Source of the DNA: Anaerovoracaceae bacterium
GTDB lineage: Bacteria; Bacillota; Clostridia; Peptostreptococcales; Anaerovoracaceae
Length of the DNA: 64,000 bases
Assembly (NCBI GenBank): GCA_963642455.1
Contig: CAVIGM010000003.1
Location: 1,716-65,715 of the forward strand
Direction: 5' to 3'
In this document: positions 27,926 through 62,617 of the stretch, in pieces
Layout: every line of letters starts with the position of its first letter
How positions within the stretch are numbered: position 1 is the first letter of the stretch
The notes under the pieces: generated by a model
The model's input: only the letters and a program-made list of their open reading frames with translations
Told to the model about the DNA's origin: nothing
The model's database searches: none
Program-made: the position numbers and the translations under genes

Positions 27926-29302
27926 ATGGACTATTCAGCTCAAAACGTTGCACTTTGGAATCCGATCATTCAGATCGGCCTAATCGCTATTGTAATTCTT
28001 CTTGCAAATGCATTAAGACGCAAAGTCGCTTTCATTAGAAACAGTATGATACCGACCGCTGTATTGGCAGGCTTCATACTGCTTTTTCTTAAACTTCTCG
28101 GAATAGCACCCGTTGATGAAGACTTCAGTTCAAATATCACATATCACTGCATCGCCCTTGGCTTCATCGCTCTGAGCCTCAGAGTTCCGGAGGCTGGTGA
28201 TGTTAAAGGCGACACTCTTACAGGTCTTAAATCAGGAAGCATAATCGTAGGCTCCTATATGATACAGGCTCTTACAGGCCTTATCATCTCAGTGACCTTG
28301 GCGCTTACCGTAATGCCAGGTCTCTTCCATGCTTGCGGAATTCTCCTTCCAATGGGCTACGGACAAGGCCCAGGACAAGCCAATAACGTCGGTCTTACAT
28401 ACGAAGCACTCGGCTTTGAAGGCGGACAGTCCTTCGGACTTTCCATCGCTGCTGCCGGCTACCTTTGCGCTTGCACCGTCGGAGTTTTCTATATTGCATA
28501 TCTTCAGAAGAAAGGCAAGGTCAAGAAAGTCGACCACGACGAGCTTTCGGGTTCTGTTACAATCGATATTTTCCAAGCCGAGAACGAGCTTCCGATTGCA
28601 GAGTCAATTGATAGAGCGTCCATTCAGGTTGCACTTGTATTGATTGTATATGTAATCACTTACCTTATGACCGCTGGAATTACAGGCCTTCTGACAAGTA
28701 AGGCTCCAGGATTAGCTGGCACACTTAACCCACTTCTTTGGGGCTTCAACTTCATGATTGGCGCAGGCGTTGCTGTACTTTTCAAAATCGGATTAAGGAA
28801 GCTCAACGAGGCAAAGATCGTTAAGCATCAATATCAGAACAATTATCTTCTGAATAGAATTTCTGGTCTTGCATTCGATATCATGATTGTTTCCGCAATT
28901 TCGACAATCAATATTTCTAAGCTCAGTGGCCTTTGGGTACCATTCATTCTGATGGCAATTGCAGGCGCAATAGTGACACTCATTCACCTTCAGTTCACCT
29001 GCAAGAAGGCTTATGGAGATTACTACTACGAGGGCCTTGTGTCCATGTACGGAATGATGACAGGAACAATCAGTTCGGGCATAATTCTCCTTCGTGAAAT
29101 CGACCCTGAATTCAAGACGCCGGCAGCTAACAATTTGGTTGTAGGCTCAAGCTTTGCAATCGCACTTGGATTCCCGCTGCTGATTCTTGTCGGCATCGCG
29201 CCTAAGTCGATCATGTCCTGCCTTATCGTAATGGCAATTGTCCTCGTATATTATCTGGTGCTTCTTAAGATTACGTGCATCAAGGGAAAGTCCAAACGCT
29301 AA
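27926..29302 (+). CDS. Sodium/glutamate symporter-like (GltS/ESS family) membrane transporter
   Basis: The 458-aa polytopic protein has an overall GltS-like layout. The family assignment is from memory, not from an alignment. Confidence 0.5.
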   Translation: MDYSAQNVALWNPIIQIGLIAIVILLANALRRKVAFIRNSMIPTAVLAGFILLFLKLLGIAPVDEDFSSNITYHCIALGFIALSLRVPEAGDVKGDTLTGLKSGSIIVGSYMIQALTGLIISVTLALTVMPGLFHACGILLPMGYGQGPGQANNVGLTYEALGFEGGQSFGLSIAAAGYLCACTVGVFYIAYLQKKGKVKKVDHDELSGSVTIDIFQAENELPIAESIDRASIQVALVLIVYVITYLMTAGITGLLTSKAPGLAGTLNPLLWGFNFMIGAGVAVLFKIGLRKLNEAKIVKHQYQNNYLLNRISGLAFDIMIVSAISTINISKLSGLWVPFILMAIAGAIVTLIHLQFTCKKAYGDYYYEGLVSMYGMMTGTISSGIILLREIDPEFKTPAANNLVVGSSFAIALGFPLLILVGIAPKSIMSCLIVMAIVLVYYLVLLKITCIKGKSKR

Positions 29303-34481: not shown

Positions 34482-35615
34482 TTAAATTCCGTATTTATCT
34501 GAATGGAAGCCTTCAAATATAGGCTTTCCGTCGTATTCGAGTATTTCTTCCTCGCCGATGAGAGCTCTGTATGCTCCCGCAGCAAGTGCAGCTACCTCAA
34601 GCTCTCCCGGATATACATAGACAGGTGCAATCCAGTCTACATATTCCTTGACCTTGTCGATAACATAGTCACATCTTGCAACTCCGCCCGTCATCAGAAT
34701 GGCATCGAATTTGCCTTTCATAACTACCGAATACATTCCGATTGTCTTAGCGAACTGGTAAGCCATTCCGTCAACAACCCTCTTAGCGTACTCGTCGTTC
34801 TCTTCATTTATGCGGCGCATAATTTCCTGCATATCCGAGGTTCCGAGATGGTCAATGAGTCCGCCCTCTCGAATCAGCTTAGTCTCGAGGTCAATCATTG
34901 TTGGATGTTCGCTACTATATGCCATCTTGAGAACTGTTGAGTTAGGAAGTATTCCGGCACGAGTTGGAGTCATAGGGCCATCGCCAATCAAGCTGTCGCT
35001 TGTGTCAATCATTCTTCCGTTGTGGTGAACCGTAACCGATACACCGCCGCCAAAGTGCGCAACAAGAAGGTCAGCCTCTTTATATTTAAGGCCATGCTCC
35101 TTGCAGAATCTATAAGCGACTTCCTTCTGATTGAGGCAGTGGCAGTGGCTCTGTCTGTAAAGGCCCTTAAGGCCGGATATTCTTGCAATATCCATAAGCT
35201 CATCAGTATCAGGAGAATTTACTGTAAAAGCAGGAACTCCATATTCGTCGGCGAGCTTGCGGCAAATCTGCGGAGCAAGCATTGCGGGATGCGGCACGCC
35301 TGATGCTGCTGTAATGCAGTCCTTGAGCATGACCGTATTTATTTCATATACGCCGCCGAGACAACCTACCATACCGCCGCCACGACCTACAAAGGCGTCC
35401 ATTTTCGAAAGATCTACGTCGTGATCCTTGCAGGCCTTCTCGACCATTTCCCAGCGGTAATAGAGCTGATCCTGAATACACGAATATTTAGCCAGCTCGT
35501 CTTTCTCGTGATGAAGGTTCTCAATCCACACCTTCTCATCATTGTGGTAATAGCCAATCTTAGTTGACGTTGAACCTGGATTCAGAGCGATGATGTGATA
35601 AATTTTCTTTTCCAT
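34482..35615 (-). CDS. buk: Butyrate (short/branched-chain acyl) kinase
   Basis: It is an ASKHA kinase with INPGSTSTK, HFGGGVSV and TGGVA motifs in a 377-aa protein. Confidence 0.85.
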   Translation of the reverse strand: MEKKIYHIIALNPGSTSTKIGYYHNDEKVWIENLHHEKDELAKYSCIQDQLYYRWEMVEKACKDHDVDLSKMDAFVGRGGGMVGCLGGVYEINTVMLKDCITAASGVPHPAMLAPQICRKLADEYGVPAFTVNSPDTDELMDIARISGLKGLYRQSHCHCLNQKEVAYRFCKEHGLKYKEADLLVAHFGGGVSVTVHHNGRMIDTSDSLIGDGPMTPTRAGILPNSTVLKMAYSSEHPTMIDLETKLIREGGLIDHLGTSDMQEIMRRINEENDEYAKRVVDGMAYQFAKTIGMYSVVMKGKFDAILMTGGVARCDYVIDKVKEYVDWIAPVYVYPGELEVAALAAGAYRALIGEEEILEYDGKPIFEGFHSDKYGI

Positions 35616-43561: not shown

Positions 43562-44344
43562 TTATTTATTTACTTTTTTATATCCATAGCATGCCGCTCC
43601 TATCGCCCCAAAGAATTGAGCTCGAGGGTCATACTCGATATTCACTCCTAATCTCTGTCCGAGCATTTCGCGTAGGGCCTCGTTAGCCGCAACGCCTCCG
43701 GACATACATACTTTCTCCTTGACGCTTGCCCTTCTTGCAAGAGCTCCTACTCTTGTCGCAACGCTCTCGCAGATTCCGGCAACGAGGTCAGGCCTTTGTA
43801 CACCATTCGCAAGCTGGCTTATTACCTCGGATTCTGCAAAAACAGTACAGGTACTCGAGATGGATGCGGGTTCCGTGGACTTCTTCGCGCAGTCGCTAAG
43901 CTCTGCGATATCCATCTTGAGGATATTTGCCATTACCTCGAGGAATCTTCCTGTACCTGCAGCACATTTGTCGTTCATAAGGAAATTCGACATTCTTCCC
44001 TGTTCGTCGAGGCATATAACCTTAGCATCCTGTCCGCCTATATCTATGATTGTTCTTAGGCCATCGAATACGAAGCTTCCGCCCATCGCATGACAGCTAA
44101 GTTCGCTAAGCTCCGCATCAGCGCCTTCATATTTCATTCTTCCGTAGCCTGTGACAATCGTATACGACATATCGTCTTTGCTAAGTCCCGAGCTTGCCCA
44201 GAGCTCCGATGTAGCTGTCTCAGGTCCGTCAGTTCCCATACCGCCAATACACAAAGACTGTGCGATGATTTCTTTGCCATCTTTCAAAATCACGCACTTA
44301 GATGTTGTTGATCCTATGTCTATGCCTGCTGTATAGATACTCAT
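43562..44344 (-). CDS. 2-hydroxyacyl-CoA dehydratase activator (BcrAD/BadFG-type ATPase, HadI/FldI/LcdC-like)
   Basis: It has an ASKHA fold (GIDIGSTTSK, DIGGQD). The cluster-bridging Cys motifs DKCAAGTGRF and SSTCTVFAESEV are present. Confidence 0.85.
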   Translation of the reverse strand: MSIYTAGIDIGSTTSKCVILKDGKEIIAQSLCIGGMGTDGPETATSELWASSGLSKDDMSYTIVTGYGRMKYEGADAELSELSCHAMGGSFVFDGLRTIIDIGGQDAKVICLDEQGRMSNFLMNDKCAAGTGRFLEVMANILKMDIAELSDCAKKSTEPASISSTCTVFAESEVISQLANGVQRPDLVAGICESVATRVGALARRASVKEKVCMSGGVAANEALREMLGQRLGVNIEYDPRAQFFGAIGAACYGYKKVNK

Positions 44345-44444
44345 TTCTCTTTGAATTTCTTATTCTCTTTCGCGGAATTTCGCACGAGTTACGCCAGATT
44401 GCGTTATTTTTCAAACGAAATTATGTTCTGTCTTCAAGCGTTCT

Positions 44445-44462
44445 TTGTGAATAAATTCACAA
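44445..44462. promoter_or_regulatory. Rex-type operator 2 (TTGTGAAtaaaTTCACAA)
   Basis: All 14 specified positions match TTGTGAA-N4-TTCACAA. It lies 9 nt downstream of the leader U-tract and about 100 nt upstream of the activase ATG. Confidence 0.7.
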
Positions 44463-44470
44463 TTTGCCTT

Positions 44471-44532
44471 AAAAAAAAGAACACATGCATAGTCTTGCGA
44501 CCACCCACTTCTCGGGTTAATGCACTGTGTTC
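44471..44532 (-). terminator. Intrinsic-terminator-like hairpin plus U8 inside the operon leader (attenuator or sRNA 3' end)
   Basis: A 12-bp stem with one bulge (44479-44490 pairs with 44520-44532) encloses a 29-nt loop that has two mini-hairpins. On the minus strand it is followed by eight U residues (plus-strand A8 at 44471-44478). Confidence 0.5.
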
Positions 44533-44583
44533 CATGATTTAGTATTCAAGCGATAATTTACTAATGAATAGCTACTGAATAGC

Positions 44584-44601
44584 TTGTGAATAATTTCACA
44601 C
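44584..44601. promoter_or_regulatory. Rex-type operator 1 (TTGTGAAtaatTTCACAc)
   Basis: 13 of 14 specified positions match the Rex consensus TTGTGAA-N4-TTCACAA. It lies at about +11 to +28 relative to the predicted TSS. Confidence 0.65.
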
Positions 44602-44617
44602 TTTTCATCTATCGCAA

Positions 44618-44645
44618 ATTATAGCACCCGTTATTTTTGTGTCAA
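44618..44645 (-). promoter_or_regulatory. SigmaA-type promoter of the dehydratase operon: TTGACA, 16 nt, TGcTATAAT (extended -10)
   Basis: The minus strand reads TTGACAcaaaaataacgggTGcTATAAT. The -35 is at 44645-44640 and the -10 at 44623-44618. The predicted TSS is near 44611, about 267 nt upstream of the activase ATG. Confidence 0.7.
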
Positions 44646-44761
44646 TATTTTTGTGTGATTTTTCCTTTACAATTTATGTATTTTTCCCGTACATTCCGCA
44701 TGGATTTATATGCTTAATTTCCATACTGAATTTCTGTACCGCGGCCTTGGAATTCTCCTCA

Positions 44762-46657
44762 TCAACTGTTCTCCGCAGCCTCTTTATAGTGGCTATAGCT
44801 TGTTATTCCGTCGCCCGTATTTGGATGAGTGTGGGTATAGACCATATCCCCCGCGAAGCTTGCAACAAGCACGGCACAGAGCGGAATCAATATGTTCAAT
44901 TTGATCTTCGACAGCATCCTTGCAAGCGCTGGCGCAATAATGTAGACGACTGCCATTCCGCCTATGGCGAATACAAGCAGACCTTCTGCGCAAATTCTTC
45001 CGTTGATATTAAGAAAATATCCTGTGTAATCCCACCAGCGTATTCCCTTGGTAGCCTCCAGAAAATACGAGGTGCTATATTCAACGATTCCGCAGAGCAC
45101 AATCGCAGCGGTCGCCTCGAGCGCAGGTCTGTCACGGAATCTCTTGAGAATAAGAAGTATCAGCACTGCTCCTGCTCCATAGATAGGAAGCCAAGGGCCG
45201 TGCATGGTTCCTCTGTTAACAAAGACTCCGTCATTTACTACATGAATCATTACCTCCCATGTCCATCCGCCAAAGGAGAATACGAAGAACATTGCTATGA
45301 TGTCCCAGATGCTGTAGGTTCTCAGGGCGTTGAATTCCCTCATCATCAGCTTAGATTTGATAAGCTTGACATTCTTCTCGCTTGCCTCCCAGAGCTTATT
45401 TAGGCGAGTCGGATATACTTCTCCCTCAGCGCAGCGGCATACCTTCTTGATGGTGAGGGCCTCCGCCTCGTATTTCTCATACTCTTGCTGCGTAGCTGTT
45501 TTGCCAATCCAAATGCCCAAATTATCCGCAAAGAATTTCTTCACTCCGCTAAGCTTGATTCTATTTGCTTCAATATCCTGTGTGCGCTCGTAAATATCTG
45601 CGTATTTTCTCTCAATCAGGCTCTTCTCAGGTCTTTCGAAGAGGTAGTAGTCATTGAGCTGATCAATTCCGACAAGGCGCTGCTTCTTACATTCGGATCT
45701 GATTACCGCATAGAATTCCGTATCTGCCGCGAGCTTATATGGGCCGACAAAGAAGAATTGCAACAAGCCGAAGCTGATATATGACAATATCTCCCATCCA
45801 ACGAAGGTCAGGTCAAATTTGAAGGTCTCCCATTTTCTGCCATTCATCATCATTCTCGAGAGTCTTATAGCCTCTTTAGGCTCTATATCTGGATTCTCTG
45901 CAATGATGAATGGAACAAGCCAATAGGAATAATATTTAATCACACCGCCGACTATCGTGAGGCTCCATAGGAAAAGCTGTAACTGAACCAAGAACATTCC
46001 CTTGGCCGCCTTCGACCACTTGCCGACACTTTTGAAGAAAAAGAAATGTGCTGGGTCTACTTTCTCGTATAACCTTGCCTCAAGGAAAATTCTCCGCATT
46101 ACAGCTCTATATAGGTTGATGACAAAGACCCATATAAGAACTATAACAAGTAAGGCAGCGAGAACCATAAGGGCTACCGATATCTTGCTGCTCTGGATGA
46201 CGGAATTTGTAGCCTTTGCAATCTTGACGATCAAGGTGCCGGATGATAAGTCGTTGGCAACTCCTGCGAGAATTCCGTATTTCCTGCCGAGAACGGCATT
46301 TGTAACTTTGGCTTTCTTGTATTTATTTGATTCGCTGTCGGCAATCTTCTCTGCCTCATCGTAGTCGCCGTCGTTCAGACTCTTTGTGAAAGCCTCCGCC
46401 TTGCTTGAATCATTTGAAATCAAGGACTTGATAAGCGTTCCCTCGAAGCCTGACTGTTGCTCTTCAATGCTTGCTAATCCTCTTGAGTCGCTCAGCGGTC
46501 TTGAGTCCACGAAGTAGCCCTTCTGTATGCCGAAAACACCTGCAACGGCAACGGTCAATATAAGTAGCACATAATGCTTCTTGAGGCTGGTCTTCGCCGC
46601 TTTCTTCCATTCTGTGCGCTCCTCGTGCGTGTATTTTCTCCTTGCTTGTTCTTCCAT
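44762..46657 (-). CDS. Polytopic membrane protein: DUF975-like module fused to a PF06541-like ('putative ABC-transporter type IV') module
   Basis: The middle part (VIKYYSYWLVPFIIAENPDIEPKEAIRLSRMMMNGRKWETFKFDLTFVGW) is DUF975-like. The C-terminal part (FSFGGWTWEVMIH...NRGTMHGPWLPIYGAGAV) is PF06541-like. Confidence 0.6.
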   Translation of the reverse strand: MEEQARRKYTHEERTEWKKAAKTSLKKHYVLLILTVAVAGVFGIQKGYFVDSRPLSDSRGLASIEEQQSGFEGTLIKSLISNDSSKAEAFTKSLNDGDYDEAEKIADSESNKYKKAKVTNAVLGRKYGILAGVANDLSSGTLIVKIAKATNSVIQSSKISVALMVLAALLVIVLIWVFVINLYRAVMRRIFLEARLYEKVDPAHFFFFKSVGKWSKAAKGMFLVQLQLFLWSLTIVGGVIKYYSYWLVPFIIAENPDIEPKEAIRLSRMMMNGRKWETFKFDLTFVGWEILSYISFGLLQFFFVGPYKLAADTEFYAVIRSECKKQRLVGIDQLNDYYLFERPEKSLIERKYADIYERTQDIEANRIKLSGVKKFFADNLGIWIGKTATQQEYEKYEAEALTIKKVCRCAEGEVYPTRLNKLWEASEKNVKLIKSKLMMREFNALRTYSIWDIIAMFFVFSFGGWTWEVMIHVVNDGVFVNRGTMHGPWLPIYGAGAVLILLILKRFRDRPALEATAAIVLCGIVEYSTSYFLEATKGIRWWDYTGYFLNINGRICAEGLLVFAIGGMAVVYIIAPALARMLSKIKLNILIPLCAVLVASFAGDMVYTHTHPNTGDGITSYSHYKEAAENS

Positions 46658-46751: not shown

Positions 46752-47633
46752 CTATTTGATTTGTTTGCTTTCTTCTTTGACGAGGTCTATAAAATGCTCT
46801 TCTATCGTCGGTAGTGGTCTGCCCTTGCGCCATACGAATCGGTAGTTGATATATTTATCATCGCCTGCAAGCTCCTTTGTTACAAGGCCTGGCCCCGGCG
46901 AGAATTCAGATTGAGGGAAGATGCTTATGCCGAGTCCCTCGTCACTTAGCATAGCCGCGTTGATGTAGCTGTCCACCTCGCAGACTATATTAGGCTCACT
47001 TCCGATCTGCCTGAACCATTTGTATATCATTTGAATGGCAGCTTGACGCCTTGGTACGATAAGTGGCTCGCCGATGAGTTCCTTAAGGTCGATTTCGCCT
47101 TTCCTTGCAAGTCTGTGGTCTGCACTCATGCTCACCGCGAGCTTCTGTCTTCCGACAAGGAAGCTGTTAAGAAGCGACTGGTCGCAAGGCTCTGTAATAA
47201 GAGCAATGCTTATAAGGCCGCTTCGAAGCTTCTCGGCAAGATCATCGCTGTTGCCTTCGATGATTCTGTATTTGACCTTCGGAAAGCTCTTCTTGAATTC
47301 AATAAGCCACTTCGCCAGAAGCTCCTTAGCCATTCCATCGACTATTCCAAGCGAAATAGTTCCCGTCATTCCGCTTTTCATCGAGCGAATCTCCGACTCA
47401 GCCTTCTCGGTCAGATTAAGAATCTCCTTCGCCCTTCTGTATAGAAGCTCGCCAGACTCTGTCAGCTTAAGCGTCTTCTTGTCTCTTATGAAAAGAATGG
47501 TGTCGAGCTCTTGCTCGAGATTTCTAAGCTGAATGCTAAGAGGCGGCTGGCTCATATTAAGCTTGGCCGCAGCCCTTGTAATATTTAGTTCCTCTGCTAC
47601 TACAACAAAGTAGGACAAGCTTCTTATATCCAT
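46752..47633 (-). CDS. LysR-family transcriptional regulator
   Basis: It has an N-terminal wHTH (FVVVAEELNITRAAAKLNMSQPPLSIQLRNLE) and a LysR substrate-binding domain. Confidence 0.85.
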   Translation of the reverse strand: MDIRSLSYFVVVAEELNITRAAAKLNMSQPPLSIQLRNLEQELDTILFIRDKKTLKLTESGELLYRRAKEILNLTEKAESEIRSMKSGMTGTISLGIVDGMAKELLAKWLIEFKKSFPKVKYRIIEGNSDDLAEKLRSGLISIALITEPCDQSLLNSFLVGRQKLAVSMSADHRLARKGEIDLKELIGEPLIVPRRQAAIQMIYKWFRQIGSEPNIVCEVDSYINAAMLSDEGLGISIFPQSEFSPGPGLVTKELAGDDKYINYRFVWRKGRPLPTIEEHFIDLVKEESKQIK

Positions 47634-52799: not shown

Positions 52800-53888
52800 T
52801 TGTTAGGACAGCTTCAAATTAATTATATAATTCCTGTAGCGGCTTGCATTTGCTTTCTGTTTTTCCTTTACTTCGGAAAATCAACCGCAATGAATAATAT
52901 TTCTGGTTATTTTATTGCCGGAACAATCACGATTCTCTTCATTATTGTGGCAGAGATTTGCGAGCCTAAATTTTCATACCCTAATTATACAACTGTTAAT
53001 TGGCAGCGCTGGCTATTCTCTATGATGGCTTATATGTTGCGTCCAGCGGTAGCTTATTTCCTTCTTTTGATACAATTTCGAAATGATTCTAATAAGAAGA
53101 AGACTTCGCTTATTCTTGCGATACCGCTTATTATAAATGCAATCTTCTTGCTGATTTCGCCATTATGCGGCATTGTATATACTTTTGATGCTGCGAATAC
53201 ATTCAACGGAGGTCCTCTTAGATACCTGCCTTTCGCAGTAGGCTTCATATATCTTTGCTATCTGGTGATTTTCCTTGGAATCTCTTCCAAAAAGAGCAGT
53301 GGCAAAGAGTGGACAGTCTTCATTCCAGTCATCATAATGATTGGTATTGCAGTCTATTTGGAATCGTTCCGCAATCTTCTGGGTTCGCTTCCACTTGCAT
53401 GCATCATCGGTATGATATTCTATTATGTATATTTCTATATGGATTATTATACAAAGGATGCCCTCACTGGAGCTTATCAGCGAAACAAGTTCTATCATGA
53501 TATCAATCATAACGGCCAAAGATATTTCATCATCTTCGATATGAATGGTCTTAAGCGCATTAACGATGAGCTTGGTCATATATGTGGAGATAATGCACTC
53601 AGAAGTTTTGGCCATATAGTTCTTTCCGTATTGCCACCTAAGGCAACTGTCTACCGCACAGGCGGTGATGAATTTGCAATTCTGTATTCACATGCAAACG
53701 AGAAAGATGTCCTTGAACTAATAGGGGTAATCGAGAGCAAGACAGATGCAGATTCTCTTCCTTACGGATTCTCGTATGGTTATTCCAGCTTCGATAAGTC
53801 CGTGGATTTCAATTCCGCATACAAGGAAGCAGACGTAATGTTATATAAGAACAAGGATAAATTCTGGCAGAAGTACAGAGCGAATTAG
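52800..53888 (+). CDS. Membrane-anchored diguanylate cyclase (GGDEF)
   Basis: A polytopic N-terminal module of about 190 aa precedes a GGDEF domain (RTGGDEFAIL). The start is TTG behind GGAG. Confidence 0.75.
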   Translation: MLGQLQINYIIPVAACICFLFFLYFGKSTAMNNISGYFIAGTITILFIIVAEICEPKFSYPNYTTVNWQRWLFSMMAYMLRPAVAYFLLLIQFRNDSNKKKTSLILAIPLIINAIFLLISPLCGIVYTFDAANTFNGGPLRYLPFAVGFIYLCYLVIFLGISSKKSSGKEWTVFIPVIIMIGIAVYLESFRNLLGSLPLACIIGMIFYYVYFYMDYYTKDALTGAYQRNKFYHDINHNGQRYFIIFDMNGLKRINDELGHICGDNALRSFGHIVLSVLPPKATVYRTGGDEFAILYSHANEKDVLELIGVIESKTDADSLPYGFSYGYSSFDKSVDFNSAYKEADVMLYKNKDKFWQKYRAN

Positions 53889-53956
53889 ACTAACAGAATC
53901 AAATTAGGTTAACAAGTTAGATTAACAAGTAAGGTTCAAAAATAAGATTAACAAAA

Positions 53957-53992
53957 CCCGATGAGTGTAGATTCAAACTCATCGGGCTTTTC
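53957..53992. terminator. Bidirectional terminator between the convergent GGDEF genes
   Basis: The stem is CCCGATGAGT..ACTCATCGGG. AAAA lies upstream and CTTTTC lies downstream. Confidence 0.75.
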
Positions 53993-54069
53993 TTATAAAT
54001 CATAGCAAGTTCGGAGTGAGAGCGTGTCATCAAGCAAGCCTTGCCTCGCTTGCCTCGCTGACGCCTCGC

Positions 54070-55218
54070 CTATGCTTCTTGATGCTGCGAATGATATTTG
54101 CCTTTCTCTATATACATCGCTTCATCCATTTTTCTCTGGAAGGTCTCCTGATTATCTTCTTTCTCGAATTTCGCATATCCCATGGATACTCTCAAGGCGA
54201 AAGGTTCTGCACCAGTCTGATTAAATTGCTCGAGCCTATCACTTATTTCGTCCATCACAGCGCGGACATCTCTGTCCTCAACATCCGGAAGAAGCATTAT
54301 GAATTCATCGCCTGAATATCGAATTACAATGCCGCTTCTTGGCATAGACTTAAGTAGCAAATCTCCCATCCAGCGGATTGCGCGATCTCCCGCATTATGT
54401 CCATAGGTATCATTTATCTTCTTGAAATCATTTACATCCATCATAATTCCATGAAGCGAGCCTCTGTATGCATTCTCCCTCTTGGTGAGCACACCATTCA
54501 GGTATCTTCGGTTAAGAAGACCTGAGAGCGCATCCATATAAGAATTCTCCGCATATATTTGCATCTGTACAAATATCAGGCCTATTGTCACAGATATGAA
54601 GGATGTTGTTATTCCATAGAATATAAGCTGCAAGATTGCCCCTGCAAAGCAAGGAACTACGAAATACAGCACTGGGAAGAAGTGAAGTCTGAGCTTCTGC
54701 GTATCGGAGCTGTATACAAGATAGATGCTGTAGACAATATATATCACAAGTGATATATAACCGATGATAATACCGTTCTCCCTATGATATACATTACTCT
54801 CCGATACAGTGAACATAAGGCCTGTACCGAAGGCGTTGAGAATAAGGGCTGTAATTTCAATTGCCCACGGAATAATCACTAATCTTATGTTACGAGTAAT
54901 CTTATCGAAGCTCTTATAAATATAAAGTAATACGTAAAGACACCACAGAAGCCCTATGCTAACGGTGCTGGCATAACTTATACTATTTGACAAATAGTTA
55001 AGCAGTCGGCCCGCCGGCATATCCTGCCCTTCCACAAGGAATGAAATCGTCTCCCATGTTGCTCCGAGCATGGTCAGAATTATCATTCCGTCATATATTC
55101 TATCTTTGGTTCTGGTGCTTTCTCTATGCTTACGCCTGGTAACAAGGAGATAGCTCATCATCAATAAGCTTATCCCGTTAGCGGCGATTATTTCTTTCAA
55201 ATCAACCAATTGATTCAC
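54070..55218 (-). CDS. Membrane-anchored GGDEF-domain protein with an SGDEF active-site variant
   Basis: A polytopic N-terminal module precedes a GGDEF domain that reads RYSGDEFIML. Confidence 0.75.
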   Translation of the reverse strand: MNQLVDLKEIIAANGISLLMMSYLLVTRRKHRESTRTKDRIYDGMIILTMLGATWETISFLVEGQDMPAGRLLNYLSNSISYASTVSIGLLWCLYVLLYIYKSFDKITRNIRLVIIPWAIEITALILNAFGTGLMFTVSESNVYHRENGIIIGYISLVIYIVYSIYLVYSSDTQKLRLHFFPVLYFVVPCFAGAILQLIFYGITTSFISVTIGLIFVQMQIYAENSYMDALSGLLNRRYLNGVLTKRENAYRGSLHGIMMDVNDFKKINDTYGHNAGDRAIRWMGDLLLKSMPRSGIVIRYSGDEFIMLLPDVEDRDVRAVMDEISDRLEQFNQTGAEPFALRVSMGYAKFEKEDNQETFQRKMDEAMYIEKGKYHSQHQEA

Positions 55219-55269
55219 TCAGCTTTCAATGTTTCAATTTATCAATATTACAATGTTTCAATAAATCAC

Positions 55270-58200
55270 TTATGCCTTTGCTGCGAATATTCTATCGAGT
55301 ACCTTCGCAATATCCTCCATGCTGATAGGCTTAGCGATATGCGCATTCATGCCCGCCTCGATGGATTTAATCCTGTCTTCTTCAAAAGCATTTGCGGTCA
55401 TAGCAACGATTGGGATATTCGCTTTTCTATTATTTGTCAGCGTGCGTATCTCCCTTGTTGCGGTATAGCCGTCCATCTTAGGCATTTGAATATCCATAAA
55501 AATCAAATCATATTTGTCCTCATCTGCATGGTACATGATCTCGACGGCCTCTGCTCCATCTGATGCAGTATCTACTTCCATGCCGGCATCCTCGAGTATT
55601 GCGGTAGCAATTTCACTGTTAAGCTCGTTGTCCTCTACAAGAAGAACATGCTTGCCGCTATAATCGTAGCGTACCTTTTCCTGCTCTTTGGTAATCTCGT
55701 CATCGTCCCTCTTAGTCAGAACGCTTCTTAATTCGGACATGAAAAGTGGCTTAGATACGAAGGCTGTAACTCCTGCTTCTCTTGCCTCTGCTTCGAAATC
55801 CGCCCAATCATAAGCGGTAAGTACGATAATTGGTACCTCCTCGCTTATAACCCTGCGAATGCGACGAACCGTCTCGATGCCGTTCATGTCAGGCATCAGA
55901 TAGTCGATGATATAGACCTTATATTCGTCCTTAATCTCCGAAGCCTCCTGCGCACGAATGACTGCTTCCCTGCCGGATACAGTCCAGTCAGGCCTCATTT
56001 CAATATCGCGAAGCATCTGGCTGACGCTTCTGCAGGTATTCAAATCGTCATCTACCACAAGCACTCTTGCGCCTTTGAGATAAGGTATAGGTTCCTTATT
56101 CACACGCTCAGTCGCAAGCTTAAGGTCTAATGTAACCGTAAAGATTGAACCTTTGCCTTCCTCACTCTCAACGACTATATCTCCGCCCATCAGGTCTATG
56201 ATGTTCTTTGTGATAGCCATGCCAAGACCAGTACCCTGAATGCCACTGACAGTTGAGCTATGCTCTCTTGAGAAAGTCTCGAAGATATGCTCCTTGAATT
56301 CCTGCGTCATACCTATGCCGGTATCCTTTACAGAAAATTCATAAGTTCTGTAGTGTTCTCTTGTGCTTGGTCTTTCAAGAAGACGAATGATGATGTCGCC
56401 GCCCGGCGGTGTATACTTGACAGCATTGCCGATAATATTGATCAGCACCTGATTCAGACGCAGCCTATCTGTGATGACATCCTCATGAACAACATCCTGT
56501 GTATCGATATACAGATTCTGATTCTTGGCATTTACAAGTCCTTGAACCATGGTGCGAAGGTCATGCAAAATGTCAGGAATGTGTATTGGCTTCTCGTCAA
56601 GCTTGACTGTTCCGCTCTCTATGCGGCTCATATCAAGAATATCGTTGATAAGGCTCAGCAAATGAGTACTTGACGTGCTAATCTTCGCAAGATAATCCTG
56701 CACCTGAATTTGATCGTCCATGTGCGTCTGGGCAAGTGCCGTGAAGCCTATAATCGCGTTCATAGGTGTACGGATGTCATGCGACATACTGTTAAGGAAA
56801 GTGGACTTCGCCTTATTGGCCTGCTGTGCCGCAGCCAGAGCATTGGACAGCTGTTCATTTTGCTCGAGTTCCTTAGTCTTCTCGAATGTACTATCGCGAG
56901 CAACATATAGAACTTCCTTGGCAACACCATTCTCGTCCCTATTCTTTACGATGAAACGCGCCTTATACCAATTTCCTGCAGGATCCTTATATTCAGCCGA
57001 AACAGTATTTACATTCTCAAGGCGGCTTGCGAGCGTATTAAGATCTAAGAATTCTCGCATTGAGCCCCGCATCTCAGGAGCCATAAATGCCGTAATAATC
57101 TTCTCTTCTACATCATCGAAATTGCCGACCGTTCCTGCAACAGTTCCCATAAGAGGAACGCTGTTGAGTATTTCGTATTTATGTGTGTCAATTTCCGCTC
57201 TGAAAATAGTCGAATAGATTGTTGACAGAGCCGAAATAACTTCGGTATGCTCTCTTTCTTGACGAAGCCTTGCCTCTTCGAGCTCGCGCTCTTTTCTTTC
57301 TTGTGCACGATGCTCTGCGACAATATCATCGACGCTCTGATAACCAAGTACAGCCTTCATGCCAGGCAGGTCCAGTCTGCTCATCGTATACTGGAAGTGA
57401 TGCACCTTTCCATCGATGATGCTGCGGTAATAGCCAGAGAATTCGCCCTGCGTTTGAAGAAGATTCTTGACATTATCTGTTTCGAAGGTCTTTCTTATCT
57501 CGGTCCTATCCTCAGGACATACCACATTCTCAATCCAATTCTTTCGAATAGCGTCAAATGGGAATTCGTAATCAGGGCCTACGTCAAGAAGTTCCTTGTA
57601 TCCCTCGTCTAACTTAAGTATTCTTATTGTCCCCTTATCCATATCTGCAAAGTAGACATTCCTGAAATTGCTTGCAAGTCTATCGAAAATCTTGAGTTGC
57701 TCTTCCATTTGCTTCTGGTAAACAAGCTCTTTCTCGCGTTGCGCCTTCTCCTCAGCTAAATGCCGAGCGATGATATCGTCAATATTGCGGAAGCCTGCAA
57801 CAACACAATTGAGATTAGCCAGCTTGAAGTAAGTATAACGATAGTGATGCACCTCGCCATCTATCAAGCCACGATAACTACCAGTATATTCATCTTTATC
57901 TGAGAATACCTCACGCAGATGCTTAAGAGAAATGTTATGCCTAACCATCTCACGATCCTCTGGATGGACGCGTTCCTCGATATAGCCTTTGCAAATTCCG
58001 TCATAAAGGAATTTCTGATTTACCGTATCGTCTACTTCTTCGGAGATATAGCTATTCATCTTGAGTATGCGAGATGAGCCGTCTTCAAGATTGATCCAGA
58101 ATACATTCTGATAATCTCGAGAAAGTACATTGATGATTGCCTGGCTCTTTTCCTCGTCTACCTTCTCAACAGCGAAAATAACATGGCAAAGCTCACCATA

Positions 58201-58947
58201 CTCGTCCTCATCTTCTGCGAAGAAATGCAGTCTGCATGTTTCTGCAGCATAAGACAGGAACTCCATCATGATGTGATTCTTGTCTGCCAAACGCTCCTTG
58301 AGAGTGCTTCTGTCCACAAATTGCAGTGCCTCTCCTAAGCTCCATTTCGAAGAAAGTGCGGTGATAATACGCTTAGAATTGTCGTCATAGTTGTCGGAAT
58401 TCGGAATAGTAGCCTTATCTATCGACGGTGTGGTCTTGATGGTGCCATAGCGATTCGTTTGAATATTCACTCTGTGCAGTGAGAAGAAAATGCTTGAAAT
58501 AGCATTATAAGCGTTATACAGGCCCTTTCTATGATGCTCACGCTCGATTCTTACTATAGAATCTATATTCTTGAAAGCCACAACAAGGCGCAGTTCCTCA
58601 CCTGGCTCAGAAATACGACTGTAACGCGCCGAATAGTATCGAATCTCGTCATCTTCGAGGATGCGGTAATCACAATCAAGATGTTCTCGGCCGTCGGAAA
58701 AGATCTCAATCAAAGACTCGCACGAGAGTGTCTCCAAGAAAGTATCTATGTCCTCGCTATATACGCGGTCTTCGGCATAGGTTCTAAGGAGCTTAGAGTA
58801 TTGAAAGTTCTGCAGGTCACTTGAGATGCCTTTCGTTACGTAACCCTGTAGCTTAATTACATCCGCGCTATCCTCATTAGGCCTTAGCACATATACATTC
58901 AGATAATCTGCGGTCAGCGCCGCCAACAAGTCAGTATAATTAAACAT
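55270..58947 (-). CDS. Soluble hybrid sensor histidine kinase: five PAS-like repeats, HisKA, HATPase_c and two REC domains
   Basis: The H-box is FLNSMSHDIRTPMNAI. HATPase motifs (DTGIGM, GTGLGMAI) are present. REC1 has LVVDDD...IIDYLMPDMNG and REC2 has LLVEDN...FMDIQMPKMDG. The N-terminal 700 aa consists of recurring modules. Confidence 0.85.
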   Translation of the reverse strand: MFNYTDLLAALTADYLNVYVLRPNEDSADVIKLQGYVTKGISSDLQNFQYSKLLRTYAEDRVYSEDIDTFLETLSCESLIEIFSDGREHLDCDYRILEDDEIRYYSARYSRISEPGEELRLVVAFKNIDSIVRIEREHHRKGLYNAYNAISSIFFSLHRVNIQTNRYGTIKTTPSIDKATIPNSDNYDDNSKRIITALSSKWSLGEALQFVDRSTLKERLADKNHIMMEFLSYAAETCRLHFFAEDEDEYGELCHVIFAVEKVDEEKSQAIINVLSRDYQNVFWINLEDGSSRILKMNSYISEEVDDTVNQKFLYDGICKGYIEERVHPEDREMVRHNISLKHLREVFSDKDEYTGSYRGLIDGEVHHYRYTYFKLANLNCVVAGFRNIDDIIARHLAEEKAQREKELVYQKQMEEQLKIFDRLASNFRNVYFADMDKGTIRILKLDEGYKELLDVGPDYEFPFDAIRKNWIENVVCPEDRTEIRKTFETDNVKNLLQTQGEFSGYYRSIIDGKVHHFQYTMSRLDLPGMKAVLGYQSVDDIVAEHRAQERKERELEEARLRQEREHTEVISALSTIYSTIFRAEIDTHKYEILNSVPLMGTVAGTVGNFDDVEEKIITAFMAPEMRGSMREFLDLNTLASRLENVNTVSAEYKDPAGNWYKARFIVKNRDENGVAKEVLYVARDSTFEKTKELEQNEQLSNALAAAQQANKAKSTFLNSMSHDIRTPMNAIIGFTALAQTHMDDQIQVQDYLAKISTSSTHLLSLINDILDMSRIESGTVKLDEKPIHIPDILHDLRTMVQGLVNAKNQNLYIDTQDVVHEDVITDRLRLNQVLINIIGNAVKYTPPGGDIIIRLLERPSTREHYRTYEFSVKDTGIGMTQEFKEHIFETFSREHSSTVSGIQGTGLGMAITKNIIDLMGGDIVVESEEGKGSIFTVTLDLKLATERVNKEPIPYLKGARVLVVDDDLNTCRSVSQMLRDIEMRPDWTVSGREAVIRAQEASEIKDEYKVYIIDYLMPDMNGIETVRRIRRVISEEVPIIVLTAYDWADFEAEAREAGVTAFVSKPLFMSELRSVLTKRDDDEITKEQEKVRYDYSGKHVLLVEDNELNSEIATAILEDAGMEVDTASDGAEAVEIMYHADEDKYDLIFMDIQMPKMDGYTATREIRTLTNNRKANIPIVAMTANAFEEDRIKSIEAGMNAHIAKPISMEDIAKVLDRIFAAKA

Positions 58948-58990
58948 GTATTATATTGCCCTTCTATTCTTAGATTGATAAGTTTGACTG

Positions 58991-59036
58991 CAATTTCGAT
59001 TGCAATTGTGATTGCGACTTCGATTGCGACTTCGTT
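58991..59036. repeat. Tandem CGATTGCRAYTTS units (x4)
   Basis: The array lies between the start of the 1225-aa kinase gene and the stop codon of the 629-aa kinase gene, which it abuts. Confidence 0.8.
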
Positions 59037-60924
59037 ACTTTGTTCCGCAGCACAGCTTCAATGTATCCTGCAGTTCTTTAGGATCAATAGGCTTGGTTAA
59101 ATGATAATTCATACCAACCTCAAGTGTGCGCATACGTTCATCATCGAAGGCGTCTGCTGTCATAGCTATGATAGGAATGCTTGCGGCATCTGGACGATCA
59201 AGTGCCCTTATCGTCTTAGTCGCCTCAAGTCCATCCATTATAGGCATACGAACGTCCATCAAGATTACACCATAGGTATTAAGTTCACTTGCGGCAAAAG
59301 TATCCACTGCCTCCTGACCATTTGTCGCTTCGGTAATCTTGCATCCGATATTCTCCAGAATAATCCTCGCTACATACGTGTTAATCTCATTATCCTCTAC
59401 AAGAAGGACATGAAGTCCGTCCAGCGAAGAAGAAGAAGAAGAAGAAGAAGAAGTTATTGATGATGATGCTCCTTTGTCTTCGCTTGCAACGATATCTACG
59501 CTCAGCAGCACCGTAAATTCCGATCCCTCGCCAAGCTTACTTTTGACTGAAATTGTGCCATCCATGCTGTCCACAAGGTTCTTTACGATAGAAAGTCCAA
59601 GTCCCGTTCCCTTCGTGGCGTTGCTCAAGTCAGAATGCTCTTGCGAGAAAGGCTCGAACAAATGCTGCTGGAATTCTTCGCTCATGCCGATGCCGTTATC
59701 ACGAACGACAAATTTAATCTTAAGCTTGCCGTCTTCTGTTTCGAGATTCTCAACATTGAACCAGATATCTCCACCCTCTGGAGTGAATTTAACGGCATTT
59801 GACAAGAGATTGAAGAAAATCTGATTGAAGCGAAGCTTATCCACAGAAATGGTATATTCCCCTGGGTTAAGCTCGGTGTGGAAGTTGATATCCTTTTCTT
59901 TCATCAGAGGCGAAATAACAGTCTCCACGGTAGATAGGAATTCCGAACGAGTCAGATTGCTCTTGTTCAGCACCAGGCCGCCGCTTTCGATACGGCTCAT
60001 ATCAAGAATGTCGTTGATAAGACCCAGAAGGAATTTGCTTGAAATCATCATTTTGTTCAGATAGTCGCGCACGGTATCTGAGACAGGCTCTTTGAGCGCC
60101 AATTCGTTCAGATTGATAATGGCATTCATAGGGGTTCTGATATCATGGCTCATACGGGAGAGGAAATCCGTCTTTGCCTTGCTTGCCTCCTGCGCCTTCT
60201 CGAGTGACTCTTGAATTATTTGCTGCTGCTCATCCTTCGCCATATCGGAATCCTTAGTAGCGATGAAGTAGAATGCAAGCATCGTAACTATAACCTGACA
60301 GAATGGCATGAATGGGAAAATCGTTCCCATAGGGATAACCGAGCCATTAACAAATGCGCCTATCAGTACAACAAGAGAAATCATTGCAGCTCTTATTGCA
60401 TAACGTTCCTTCTGTTCGTTCTTGCGTATCAATATTATCAGCATATCAATTATTGAATCCGCATAGTAGAAGAAGTTGAGATAGGAATATATGGTGTATA
60501 ATTGGCCTCTTGCATACATGCCATTATTGTCGAAATAATACAATGCACCTGTAGAAGGTGTCATTATAATCATGACAAGCAGGATTACAATAGGAATTAG
60601 CTCTAATATCCTGACCAACTTTCCGAGGGTGCTTCCTACGTAATTACGCACAAATAAGTGCCATATAAATGGAAGTGCTGTATATACTATATAGAAGACA
60701 AATGCGACTATGCTCCACTGGCTTACGGTGAGTCCTCCGGAGAGGTGGCAAGCGATAAAAACGCAGTCCGTTATAACATATAGTGCAGTTCCGCCTATAA
60801 GAAGCAGCGAATAGTTGCGGCTTGTCTTCTTCGTAACAGCTGTGAAGGATCGAGCCGCAATGATTGCCAAGATAATGATCATGAAGACCGCACTCAGCAC
60901 ATAACTAGATAGTATACTATTCAT
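59035..60924 (-). CDS. Membrane hybrid sensor histidine kinase with a poly-Ser linker and a C-terminal REC domain
   Basis: A polytopic module of about 220 aa precedes the H-box FLSRMSHDIRTPMNAI and HATPase_c (DNGIGM, GTGLGLSIV). An S-rich linker follows, then REC (LLVEDNE...LMDVRMPIMDG). Confidence 0.85.
   Translation of the reverse strand: MNSILSSYVLSAVFMIIILAIIAARSFTAVTKKTSRNYSLLLIGGTALYVITDCVFIACHLSGGLTVSQWSIVAFVFYIVYTALPFIWHLFVRNYVGSTLGKLVRILELIPIVILLVMIIMTPSTGALYYFDNNGMYARGQLYTIYSYLNFFYYADSIIDMLIILIRKNEQKERYAIRAAMISLVVLIGAFVNGSVIPMGTIFPFMPFCQVIVTMLAFYFIATKDSDMAKDEQQQIIQESLEKAQEASKAKTDFLSRMSHDIRTPMNAIINLNELALKEPVSDTVRDYLNKMMISSKFLLGLINDILDMSRIESGGLVLNKSNLTRSEFLSTVETVISPLMKEKDINFHTELNPGEYTISVDKLRFNQIFFNLLSNAVKFTPEGGDIWFNVENLETEDGKLKIKFVVRDNGIGMSEEFQQHLFEPFSQEHSDLSNATKGTGLGLSIVKNLVDSMDGTISVKSKLGEGSEFTVLLSVDIVASEDKGASSSITSSSSSSSSSLDGLHVLLVEDNEINTYVARIILENIGCKITEATNGQEAVDTFAASELNTYGVILMDVRMPIMDGLEATKTIRALDRPDAASIPIIAMTADAFDDERMRTLEVGMNYHLTKPIDPKELQDTLKLCCGTK
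59426..59452. repeat. Perfect (GAA)9 microsatellite inside a CDS, encoding Ser9 as TCT on the minus strand
   Basis: It reads gaagaagaagaagaagaagaagaagaa and is followed by (GAT)3. It corresponds to the linker ...SSSSSSSSS... of the hybrid kinase. Confidence 0.9.
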
Positions 60925-61256: not shown

Positions 61257-61405
61257 TCTCATTATAGATTTAAGTTGCGATTGAGGTCTAATTCTTATTT
61301 TCAATTTAATGGCACGAAATTATAGAAACAAATTATTAGAAGTATGGTAGAATCAAGACAAACCTGAACAGAACAAGAATGAACAGGAATGAACAGGAGG
61401 AAGAA

Positions 61406-62617
61406 ATGAGAATGCGTAAATTCAAAACAAGATCAAAGATACTCGCTTCGCTGGCGTTAGTATTGCTTATGGTCTTAGGTCTTACTGGATGCGGTAACAA
61501 TGACAGAGTGAAGGGAACGGTCCTCGGAGACTATGTAATCGAGCTTCCAACAATTACGGAAATCGACTATGACGCTGGCCTTAAGAAAGGCAAAGAAATG
61601 TTCGGCAAGTTCGGTTGCTCTGCAATCGGCAAGGTTCTGGACGATGGCGACATGGTTATCGGCCGCTCTTTTGACCTCTACTACAGCAACAACCCTGCTT
61701 ATGTAATCAGAACGGATGTTGAAGGCTACTATAAAACAGTTGGTCTTGCATACGATAACTTCGACGGAGAGACCTTCGACGTTATTAAAGAGAAAGGCGT
61801 AAGCCAAGACGAACTTTTGACTTTGATTTTCTTTACTAACGACATTATGAACGAGAAGGGCCTTTACATCGAGGCAAATATGCGCCCTGAGCAGCCAGAA
61901 TCTACTGGAATTGTCGCAAGCACAGGCACGAACCCTGACGCAGAGATCAGCCTTTCTTTCCCTGCACTTGTCAGATACCTTGGTGAAAGATGCGCCACCG
62001 TTGATGAGGCTGTTGAGCTTGCACAGACACTGAATGTATATGGCATGATTACTGATGATTTCAGCTGGGGCGGAGCCTATTTCTTGGCTGACGAATCCGG
62101 TCACTACGGTGTCATGGAGCTCGTTGACAACAAGCTTATTTGGCTCGACGGACAGAATTGCCAGACTAACTACTACCTCAACGACGAATACAAGGATGTT
62201 GCAACTATAGGTGCCGGAACAGGCAGATATGACCTTCTTACAAGCGAAATCGGCTCGGTTCAGAGCGAGGACGACATGACAAGTCTTATCAAGAAGGTTA
62301 GATATACTCAGATTCGCAGCCCTTATACCAGCCTATTTGATCCACGCAGTGAGTTTACAGGATTCGGCGATGGCTTCGAGGACTTTGGTGGTGCGCTTAC
62401 GATTGAGATGAGCCAGAGCGATGAGTACAAAGATCAGCTCTACGAAGCAATCGAGCAAAACGAAGCGGCTGAGAGAGATAAAGACATTCAGACGCTTAGA
62501 GACGAAGGCACGCAGTGGCTCTCCGTATGGCAGTCGATTTCAAATTGTAACAAGAGAACAATCAAGGCTATCTTCTTCGAAGACGACAATCTGACCTTTG
62601 ACCTTACGGTTGAATAG
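61406..62617 (+). CDS. Lipoprotein of the choloylglycine hydrolase / linear-amide C-N hydrolase (Ntn) family
   Basis: The lipobox is LGLTGC. A CBAH-like nucleophile context (GC-SAIGKVLDDGDMVIGRSFD) lies about 55 aa later. I place the start at ATG 61406, 5 nt after AGGAGG. Confidence 0.55.
   Translation: MRMRKFKTRSKILASLALVLLMVLGLTGCGNNDRVKGTVLGDYVIELPTITEIDYDAGLKKGKEMFGKFGCSAIGKVLDDGDMVIGRSFDLYYSNNPAYVIRTDVEGYYKTVGLAYDNFDGETFDVIKEKGVSQDELLTLIFFTNDIMNEKGLYIEANMRPEQPESTGIVASTGTNPDAEISLSFPALVRYLGERCATVDEAVELAQTLNVYGMITDDFSWGGAYFLADESGHYGVMELVDNKLIWLDGQNCQTNYYLNDEYKDVATIGAGTGRYDLLTSEIGSVQSEDDMTSLIKKVRYTQIRSPYTSLFDPRSEFTGFGDGFEDFGGALTIEMSQSDEYKDQLYEAIEQNEAAERDKDIQTLRDEGTQWLSVWQSISNCNKRTIKAIFFEDDNLTFDLTVE

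Follow-up and report, generated by a model that had tools for sequence, protein, structure and literature searches.

Transcription attenuators and Rex-type operators are both regulatory elements of known kinds. In the protein-dependent antitermination systems, which include the ribonucleic antiterminator (RAT) targets of BglG, SacY and LicT, the ANTAR targets and HutP (reviewed in PMC12591593), transcription terminates by default in the leader, and the conserved RNA target shares sequence with the terminator's 5′ side, so that binding would block terminator formation. Four-segment attenuators of the trp, pyr or T-box style comprise an anti-antiterminator, an antiterminator and a terminator. 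Rex operators are 18-bp palindromes with the overall consensus TTGTGAANNNNTTCACAA (PMC6391272). The leader described here layers one kind of control on the other. It lies at 44645–44345 on the minus strand, on which all coordinates of leader elements are read, of a 64,000-nucleotide stretch of Anaerovoracaceae DNA (GCA_963642455.1, contig CAVIGM010000003.1; the whole stretch is hereafter the window), and it precedes an amino-acid-fermentation operon, for a 2-hydroxyacyl-CoA dehydratase pathway, in an uncultured gut bacterium related to Clostridium. We propose, with a probability of roughly 55% for the model as a whole, that this leader combines Rex-type repression with a new, probably factor-dependent attenuator. 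Comparison of leaders suggests that the new part is a conserved attenuator block, an undescribed RNA control element.

An earlier note on this DNA had described a promoter, two palindromic boxes and a terminator-like hairpin in the leader, and every one of these elements was found where the note had placed it. The sigma-A-type promoter (44645–44618) consists of a −35 element TTGACA (44645–44640), a 16-nt spacer and an extended −10 element TGcTATAAT (44626–44618); it matches at 12 of 12 positions in addition to the TG extension and is the sole such site within 44000–45200. The palindrome Box 1, GTGTGAAattaTTCACAA (44601–44584), which the note had spelled as on the plus strand, spans about +11 to +28 relative to a transcription start predicted near 44611. 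The hairpin, P1, comprises a 5′ arm GGAACACAGUGCAU (44533–44520), a 29-nt interior (44519–44491) in which the mini-hairpins CCCGA/UGGGU and GGUC-GCAA-GACU (with a GCAA tetraloop) form a three-way junction, and a 3′ arm AUGCAUGUGUUC (44490–44479) followed by U8 (44478–44471). It folds at −22.5 kcal/mol (z = −3.5; 0 of 200 shuffles fold equally well), and its 13-pair closing stem runs directly into U8 in the manner of an intrinsic terminator; folding and shuffling thus confirm the stem, structured interior and U-tract that the note had described. A simple terminator scanner missed this hairpin for no other reason than its 8-nt limit on loop size. The second palindrome, Box 2, TTGTGAAtttaTTCACAA (44462–44445), begins 8 nt past the U-run, and the remaining 5′ untranslated region (44444–44345) carries a purine-rich ribosome-binding region, AAAGAGAA, and no promoter-like site before the activase ATG at 44344. 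A promoter scan of 44000–45200 likewise returned no second sigma-70-like promoter between hairpin and ATG, in agreement with the earlier note.

Loci were fetched around activase homologues, and seven further lineages, with Anaerovoracaceae-like activases 73–79% identical to that of the window, carry an orthologous leader. These are represented by L084 (= L001, a Mogibacterium sp. metagenome-assembled genome (MAG)), L085/L086, L087–L089, L090/L091/L103, L128, L129 and L130; the L128 leader is partial, as its contig starts inside the block. Three strain variants (L081–L083) have leaders identical to that of the window and are not informative. The complete leaders share a promoter, a palindrome, the block, a structured region and a stem with a U-run, and this stem and T-run lie just ahead of the first gene in all relatives. 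The promoter reads TTGACA-(16–17 nt)-TATAAT in L084, L085, L087, L090, L129 and L130, often with the spacer AAAAATATCA, and the relatives' palindrome lies 4–16 nt past the −10 element, at about +5 to +30. Upstream neighbour genes differ in all seven relatives while the leader persists, indicating that the leader belongs to the operon. The recurrence of promoter, palindrome, terminator and first gene together in seven other lineages bears out the earlier view of a genuine operon leader.

The conserved block of the window, TTATCG-CTTGAATACTAAATCAT-GGAACACAGTGCAT (44556–44520), is composed of the 3′ strand of an upstream pairing, P0, then an A/U-rich stretch of 13–17 nt that is predicted to be unpaired, and then the 5′ arm of P1. 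Its consensus across leaders is GTTAYnnCTTGAATAMWWAATCATnGAACAC(R)ATGCAY, of which about 31 nt, made up of 17 unpaired nucleotides and the P1 arm, are near-invariant; the window form that includes the unpaired nucleotides is CUUGAAUACUAAAUCAU-GGAACAC, and the block RNA reads CUUGAAUACUAAAUCAUGGAACAC. A 25-nt perfect match joins the window to L001/L084, and block columns are mostly invariant in a seven-sequence alignment (A1) even though the encoded proteins differ at about one quarter of residues. Across all 132 loci collected and the window, an nhmmer profile of the block matches these leaders only (E = 1e-10 to 1e-12), with no copy elsewhere in the window. Pattern scans returned one true match among metagenomes, on the same contig as L090, alongside 29 chance matches, and in viral sequences one chance match and no true one. 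The block is absent from loci at 70–73% activase identity (L092–L097, L131 at 73%, L002 and L003). Among these, the Mogibacterium-type loci L092–L097 (about 440–1500; activase 70–72% identical) differ further in having a divergent LysR-family gene next to the activase.

Two minor observations concern the block sequence. Four of the chance metagenome matches (L114, L118, L120 and L125) are a spacer within a CRISPR array with the repeat CTGCCAAACCACTGATGCCGCAAGGCGTTGAGCAC and are unrelated. In L084, the −10 region CAAGCTATAAT (1410–1420) and GTTATAGCTTG, with which the block begins (1465–1475), are perfectly complementary over 10 nt; the −10 strand would be untranscribed if the predicted start is right, and we found no explanation for the match.

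Conservation of the block extends into RNA structure. Its 3′ part (AUnGAACACRAUGCAY) forms the 5′ arm of P1 in eight of eight leaders, and the pairing is kept though the sequence and bulges of the 3′ arm vary. Among the eight leaders, arm position 6 is occupied by G.U, A-U, G-C and U-A pairs, position 13 by A-U, G-C and G.U, and position 19 by U-A, C-G and A-U. The covariation that the earlier note had proposed looking for in homologous leaders is therefore present, as compensatory changes at these three positions that keep the terminator stem. Relative to shuffles, the P1 region scores z = −1.6 to −3.0 in the relatives and −3.5 in the window. The P1 interior is conserved neither in sequence nor in length (14–52 nt among leaders), and the CUUGAAUACUAAAUCAU stretch of 13–17 nt is predicted to be unpaired in every leader. 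Upstream, the GUUAYnnCUUG part of the block pairs with a complement to form P0, as GCGAUA/UUAUCGC in the window, as CAAGUGGUGA/UUAUCACUUG with G.U pairs in L087, and also in L085 and L090, where the pairing forms local hairpins; it is not evident in L084, L129 or L130. Separately, UUGCGAU (44617–44611), the predicted first transcribed bases of the window leader, has two complements, UUAUCGC immediately ahead of the block and GUCGCAA in the terminator's interior hairpin (44500–44494), which would permit alternative 5′-end pairings, conditional on the true transcription start.

The spacing of the first gene bears directly on what the terminator does. The ATG lies 14 nt past the U-run in L084, 10 nt in L087 and 25 nt in L090, leaving no room for a second promoter, so transcription of these operons must pass the terminator. 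Read-through is thus required in three relatives, as the attenuation proposed in the earlier note would demand, and very probably the hairpin is a conserved terminator that functions as such and has to be read through for the operon to be expressed. It would be an alternative for the hairpin to terminate the upstream membrane-protein gene (44762–46657), with the operon promoter lying further downstream. The hairpin is indeed downstream of that gene on the same strand, but a consensus promoter separates the gene's stop codon from the hairpin, the block and terminator persist beside unrelated upstream genes in relatives (MFS/acetyltransferase, GDPD, Exo_endo_phos and DUF1836), the ATG is a mere 10–25 nt from the U-run in L084, L087 and L090, and no promoter-like site follows the hairpin in the window. 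We regard that assignment as extremely improbable and reject it on grounds of synteny and spacing. Because transcription in these three relatives must cross the terminator, the leader is, as judged by comparison, an attenuator and neither a free-standing small-RNA gene nor the terminator of the previous gene.

The eight leaders present the block in two architectures. In the window, L090, L128, L129 and L130, a U-run follows P1 directly and P1 is itself the terminator. In L084, L085 and L087, P1 has no U-run and would act as an anti-antiterminator; a separate terminator follows, composed of AyCGGAACUCGC, a loop, GCGGGUUCC and U7. The P1 loop in these three leaders holds CG(G/A)GUUyyGU, which is complementary to the terminator 5′ arm and to 2–3 nt beyond it. 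The resulting antiterminator duplexes are predicted at −13.9, −18.2 and −11.0 kcal/mol in L084, L085 and L087, respectively (11, 1 and 51 of 2,000 shuffles being as good), against −11.3, −14.3 and −11.0 kcal/mol for the corresponding terminator hairpins. When the nascent RNA is folded up to the terminator 5′ arm, a free block yields P1 and a masked block yields the antiterminator in all three leaders. Sequestration of the block thus predicts read-through in both layouts, and on this we chiefly base the proposal that the block acts as the sensor and is captured in the ON state. The near-invariant block and the second architecture, with its anti-antiterminator, antiterminator and terminator, had escaped the earlier note, and it is the second architecture that reveals the regulatory logic.

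This arrangement bears on a second alternative, in which the leader would give rise to a Rex-controlled small RNA of about 140 nt that uses the unpaired stretch as a seed for other mRNAs, the operon being expressed by leaky read-through. RoxS/RsaE is a Rex-controlled small RNA in Bacillus and Staphylococcus and offers a precedent; like it, the RNA envisaged here would be a short transcript under a Rex operator, terminated intrinsically. Base-pairing small RNAs also have as their standard layout a single-stranded A/U-rich stretch ahead of a terminator hairpin and U-tail, and in the leader this stretch is invariant. The leader differs from RoxS/RsaE in being physically an operon leader and in lacking C-rich seed motifs, and it matches neither RsaE nor any other Rfam small RNA. 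The element is always fused to the operon, no complementary target was found in the window, and the opposition of antiterminator and separate terminator in three leaders indicates regulated read-through as opposed to a fixed leak. We consider a dedicated small-RNA function unlikely as the primary explanation, although small-RNA and attenuator roles are compatible with each other.

The antitermination systems outlined above provide the nearest comparison for the block, and the likeness to HutP extends to control of an amino-acid catabolic operon. HutP targets are regularly spaced UAG triplets, of which the block has no run. The block overlaps the terminator 5′ arm as a RAT does but is unpaired, and is not a palindromic stem-loop of about 30 nt; the two hexaloop hairpins with A1 and G4 of an ANTAR target are also missing, the window loops being 5 nt and 4 nt (GCAA) (definitions from PMC12591593). 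The leader further differs from all three systems in having no such regulator gene adjoining it. With four-segment attenuators, L084, L085 and L087 share the succession of P1 as anti-antiterminator, antiterminator and terminator; the leader differs from them in lacking a leader peptide and T-box or specifier features, and in the window the design is collapsed to a single stem.

Other known elements were considered and rejected. Covariance-model scans with Rfam 15 (T-box included) gave no match to the leader at E ≤ 10, none to the seven related leaders at E ≤ 5 and none in the window at gathering score, in line with the earlier note's failure to recognize a known riboswitch class. The resemblance of GUGGGUGGUCGC to a T-box is superficial, since the UGG of the block varies among leaders (AG or UG in relatives) and specifier features are missing. 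A sigma-54 promoter within the block is excluded by TGGAACACAGTGCA, which has GG-N8-GC and not GG-N10-GC, and by the GG, which is AG or TG in relatives. A leader peptide is excluded by the lack of any conserved open reading frame (ORF) and by L085, which has stops in three of three frames inside the block. The window does contain a 15-codon ORF, MKSVKLFTSYSVAIH (44607–44563), whose ATG at 44607 lies 4 nt past the predicted start and which spans Box 1 and ends 18 nt ahead of CUUG; it has no Shine–Dalgarno sequence and no counterpart in related leaders, and is probably a chance ORF. Matches to a CodY box or to a catabolite-responsive element (cre) are poor.

The cre possibility deserves separate mention, as the block could in principle be a DNA operator, for example a CcpA roadblock. 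It contains TTGAATACTAAATCA, which is two positions off the Bacillus-type cre WTGNAANCGNWNNCW, but it has no central CG and is not palindromic, it matches the clostridial creCD motif RRGAAAANGTTTTCWW at only 9 of 16 positions, and its conservation continues into a stem arm with a co-varying partner, which indicates constraint at the RNA level. Such an operator is very unlikely, even with the precedent that hadA of Clostridioides difficile is a direct CcpA target (PMC3510511). The C. difficile had operon has the same enzyme set and pathway as the operon studied here and, as proposed here, is under layered control, with several global regulators of which CcpA binds hadA directly. Loci of the C. 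difficile type differ in having a sigma-54 −24/−12 promoter, TTGGCACGnnnnATGCTT, upstream of hadA and no attenuator block. Among the fetched loci, those of C. difficile, Metaclostridioides and Paraclostridium (L034, L040 and L044) carry the sigma-54 −24/−12 promoter GTTGGCACGnTAAATGCTTAAC upstream of hadA, at about 1590–1620. In L034 and L040, a Rex-like TTGTTAATTTTACAACAA lies about 200 nt further upstream of this promoter, in a region shared with a divergent gene.

The second component of the model concerns the two palindromes. Matched against the Rex consensus, Box 1 is one position off (13 of 14) and Box 2 is perfect (14 of 14). At most one mismatch to this consensus is seen twice in the 64-kb window, both times in the leader, against an expectation of 0.01, and 0 of 100 shuffles reach two. 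The boxes are 139 bp apart, Box 1 at about +11 to +28 and Box 2 at about +150 relative to the 12/12 promoter, ahead of an NADH-consuming fermentation operon; target and tandem sites are as in known Rex regulons. Judged by those regulons, control by Rex would make sense for a pathway that is reductive and regenerates NAD+. No published Rex control of had/fld-type dehydratase operons was found in the literature searches made. The earlier note had named TTGTGAA-N4-TTCACAA as the Rex consensus: this fits the window boxes, whereas the clostridial consensus, TTGTTAANNNNTTAACAA, is usually TTGTTAA-N4-TTAACAA, and one preprint reports Rex operators from a member of the Anaerovoracaceae (bioRxiv 10.64898/2026.09.09.750506).

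Relatives carry boxes with TTGTTAA/TTAACAA half-sites. The closest, L128, has a Box 2 counterpart, TCGTTAAtattTTAACAA, 8 nt past the U-run, a clostridial variant that matches the clostridial consensus at 13 of 14 positions and is not found in the other relatives. Of the six relatives whose leaders are complete, five have a Box 1 counterpart with the core GTTA-N6-TAAC (for example, TTGTTAAagtaGTAACGA in L129 and GGGTTAAagatTTAACGA in L090), and L085 keeps only the left half-site. Thus, where the earlier note had asked for boxes and hairpin to be conserved at orthologous loci, the hairpin is retained, Box 2 is confined to L128 and Box 1 is degenerate. The window boxes are both of the GTGAA type and those of the relatives of the GTTAA type, and such a joint shift at two separate sites is more readily explained by a single DNA-binding protein common to both than by independent RNA hairpins. 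When folded as RNA, the Box 1 counterparts have variable loops (GAAAAA, AAUAAA and UUUCUU). In the homologous operon of Clostridium aromativorans (L018), TTGTGAAattaTTTACAA and the hybrid TTGTGAActtgTTAACAA flank the −10 element, and in L002 two boxes flank the promoter. In 80 genome loci, the density of boxes with a score of 12 of 14 or better is 0.41 per kb within the 400 nt that precede the activase, against 0.031 per kb outside this region, a 13-fold enrichment that is an upper estimate because the comparison includes coding DNA. Rex-type control of the leader is, from these sequence matches, plausible and somewhat more likely than not.

It is conceivable that the palindromes instead bind a regulator other than Rex, such as a member of the Crp/Fnr family, or that Box 1 serves as a stabilizing 5′ RNA hairpin. 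TGTGA-N6-TCACA is present in both window boxes, and a related palindrome, TGTGA-N8-TCACA, lies upstream of the −35 element of L090. The Box 1 palindrome of L129 is part of a longer RNA stem of 10 bp, and no rex gene is seen in the window. Set against this, Box 2 agrees with Rex at 14 of 14 positions including the outer TT/AA and inner A/T, sites downstream of the start suit a repressor and not a class I or II activator, and the GTTAA half-sites of relatives are the clostridial Rex variant, with L018 mixing both half-site types in one box. An NAD+-regenerating pathway is, moreover, the expected kind of Rex target, and no crp or fnr homologue is found in the 64-kb window either. We judge a non-Rex origin of the palindromes to be on the unlikely side, though the least unlikely of the alternatives considered here. 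As a side observation, the L090 palindrome is TTGTGATAGAAAATTCACAA (1207–1226), two bases wider than a Rex box and placed 7 nt upstream of the −35 element.

Taken together, the proposed model has two layers. In the first, a dimeric repressor, most likely the NADH/NAD+ sensor Rex, would bind both 18-bp palindromes and repress when NADH is low; Box 1 sits just downstream of the start, and at Box 2, which begins 8 bp past the terminator, the bound repressor could be a roadblock or could loop the DNA to Box 1. In the second, every transcript would meet the intrinsic terminator before the first gene, giving by default a leader RNA of about 140 nt. The block would be captured on the nascent transcript by a factor acting in trans, for which an RNA-binding antiterminator protein is the likeliest candidate and an RNA a possible one; the structure here follows from comparison, and the sensor is our proposal. 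In the window and four relatives, capture would directly prevent the terminator stem. In L084, L085 and L087, it would open the anti-antiterminator and free the enclosed sequence to pair with the 5′ arm of the separate terminator. The outcome would be the same in both layouts, with the operon read through once the block is captured. More tentatively, and at less than even odds, the block may be the recognition site of an undescribed antitermination system that senses the amino-acid-derived substrate of the dehydratase pathway, combined with redox sensing by Rex. The sensor in that case would be a protein that binds RNA or, with lower probability, a riboswitch of a new class, and it would serve two interchangeable expression platforms, a direct terminator arm and an anti-antiterminator.

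Several observations weigh against this combined model. For the attenuator, full-length minimum-energy folds of L084, L085 and L087 keep the terminator even when the block is masked, so the switch would have to be kinetic and operate during transcription. The five single-stem leaders show no competing or consistent antiterminator fold, and none of the eight loci has a candidate RNA-binding regulator gene adjoining it. The comparison also covers only eight known lineages, all of them uncultured. For the operators, Box 1 counterparts score just 9–12 of 14 against the Rex consensus and could be 5′ RNA hairpins, the TGTGA-N6-TCACA pattern also fits Crp/Fnr-type regulators, and tblastn and Pfam searches found no rex gene in the 64-kb window. 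The leader further departs from known Rex targets in the placement of one putative site, which immediately follows an intrinsic terminator at about 150 nt from the start of the transcribed region, an unusual position that implies a roadblock or a loop.

A further alternative is a small-molecule riboswitch, in which P0, the joining strand and P1 would form an aptamer and ligand binding would stabilize P1, giving termination in both layouts and hence an OFF switch. The logic of such a switch is consistent across the two architectures, an invariant unpaired strand flanked by two stems is a typical small-aptamer layout, and no regulator gene adjoins any of the loci. The P0 3′ strand, UUAUCNC, also pairs upstream, with variable NN positions that change together with their complement. 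Yet P1 with its U-run already reaches −22 to −27 kcal/mol and, with no ligand-free competing fold in five leaders, would leave nothing to switch; the P1 interior is unconserved and P0 is not evident in three leaders; and for a catabolic operon one would sooner expect induction than an OFF switch. A riboswitch of this kind is therefore unlikely in our view. The lack of an intrinsic antiterminator in the five single-stem leaders argues for a trans-acting factor over a self-contained riboswitch, and factor-dependent antitermination is favoured over both a riboswitch and a small-RNA seed.

The regulated operon (44344–35708, minus strand) encodes, by Pfam and NCBIfam assignment, the activase, dehydratase alpha and beta subunits (HadB/HadC-like), a family III CoA-transferase, a D-2-hydroxyacid dehydrogenase, an acyl-CoA dehydrogenase, EtfB and EtfA, and is followed by a butyrate-kinase-like gene (34482–35615). 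It is a reductive, NADH-consuming and NAD+-regenerating 2-hydroxyacyl-CoA dehydratase pathway of the had/fld type. The best NCBIfam matches of the dehydratase subunits are HadB (473 bits) and HadC (400 bits), both under the equivalog cut-offs, so the 2-hydroxyacid substrate is not assignable. Operons of this type make isocaproate and the aryl-propionates phenylpropionate and indole-3-propionate, which are gut-microbial products. To our knowledge, almost nothing is known of their regulation outside C. difficile. The leader thus offers a testable case of a single promoter on which two signals would converge, with Rex-type operators conveying the redox state and a conserved attenuator conveying the other signal. 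Its near-invariant RNA block of 24–31 nt is an orphan cis-regulatory motif absent from Rfam and could serve as bait for a new RNA-binding regulator or ligand, and the two expression platforms attached to one sensor sequence point to rewiring of attenuators in evolution.

Upstream of the leader on the same strand lie the gene for a 631-aa membrane protein (44762–46657), a fusion of DUF975 and a CmpB-type 'ABC-transporter type IV' domain with no NCBIfam match, and then a LysR gene (46752–47633). A link between this LysR and that of the Mogibacterium-type loci was rejected, as the two are not orthologous and only the helix-turn-helix region aligns (38% over 72 aa). An identical activase occurs in the assembly GCA_963617625.1, and the nearest named relatives are Mogibacterium and Candidatus Crickella MAGs (family Anaerovoracaceae, order Peptostreptococcales). 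The window contains no tRNA genes. Two plus-strand ORFs, at 27926–29302 (458 aa) and 61379–62617 (412 aa), have no Pfam match. A signalling cluster at 52800–60924 comprises two GGDEF-domain genes and two hybrid histidine kinase/response-regulator genes (1,225 and 629 aa).

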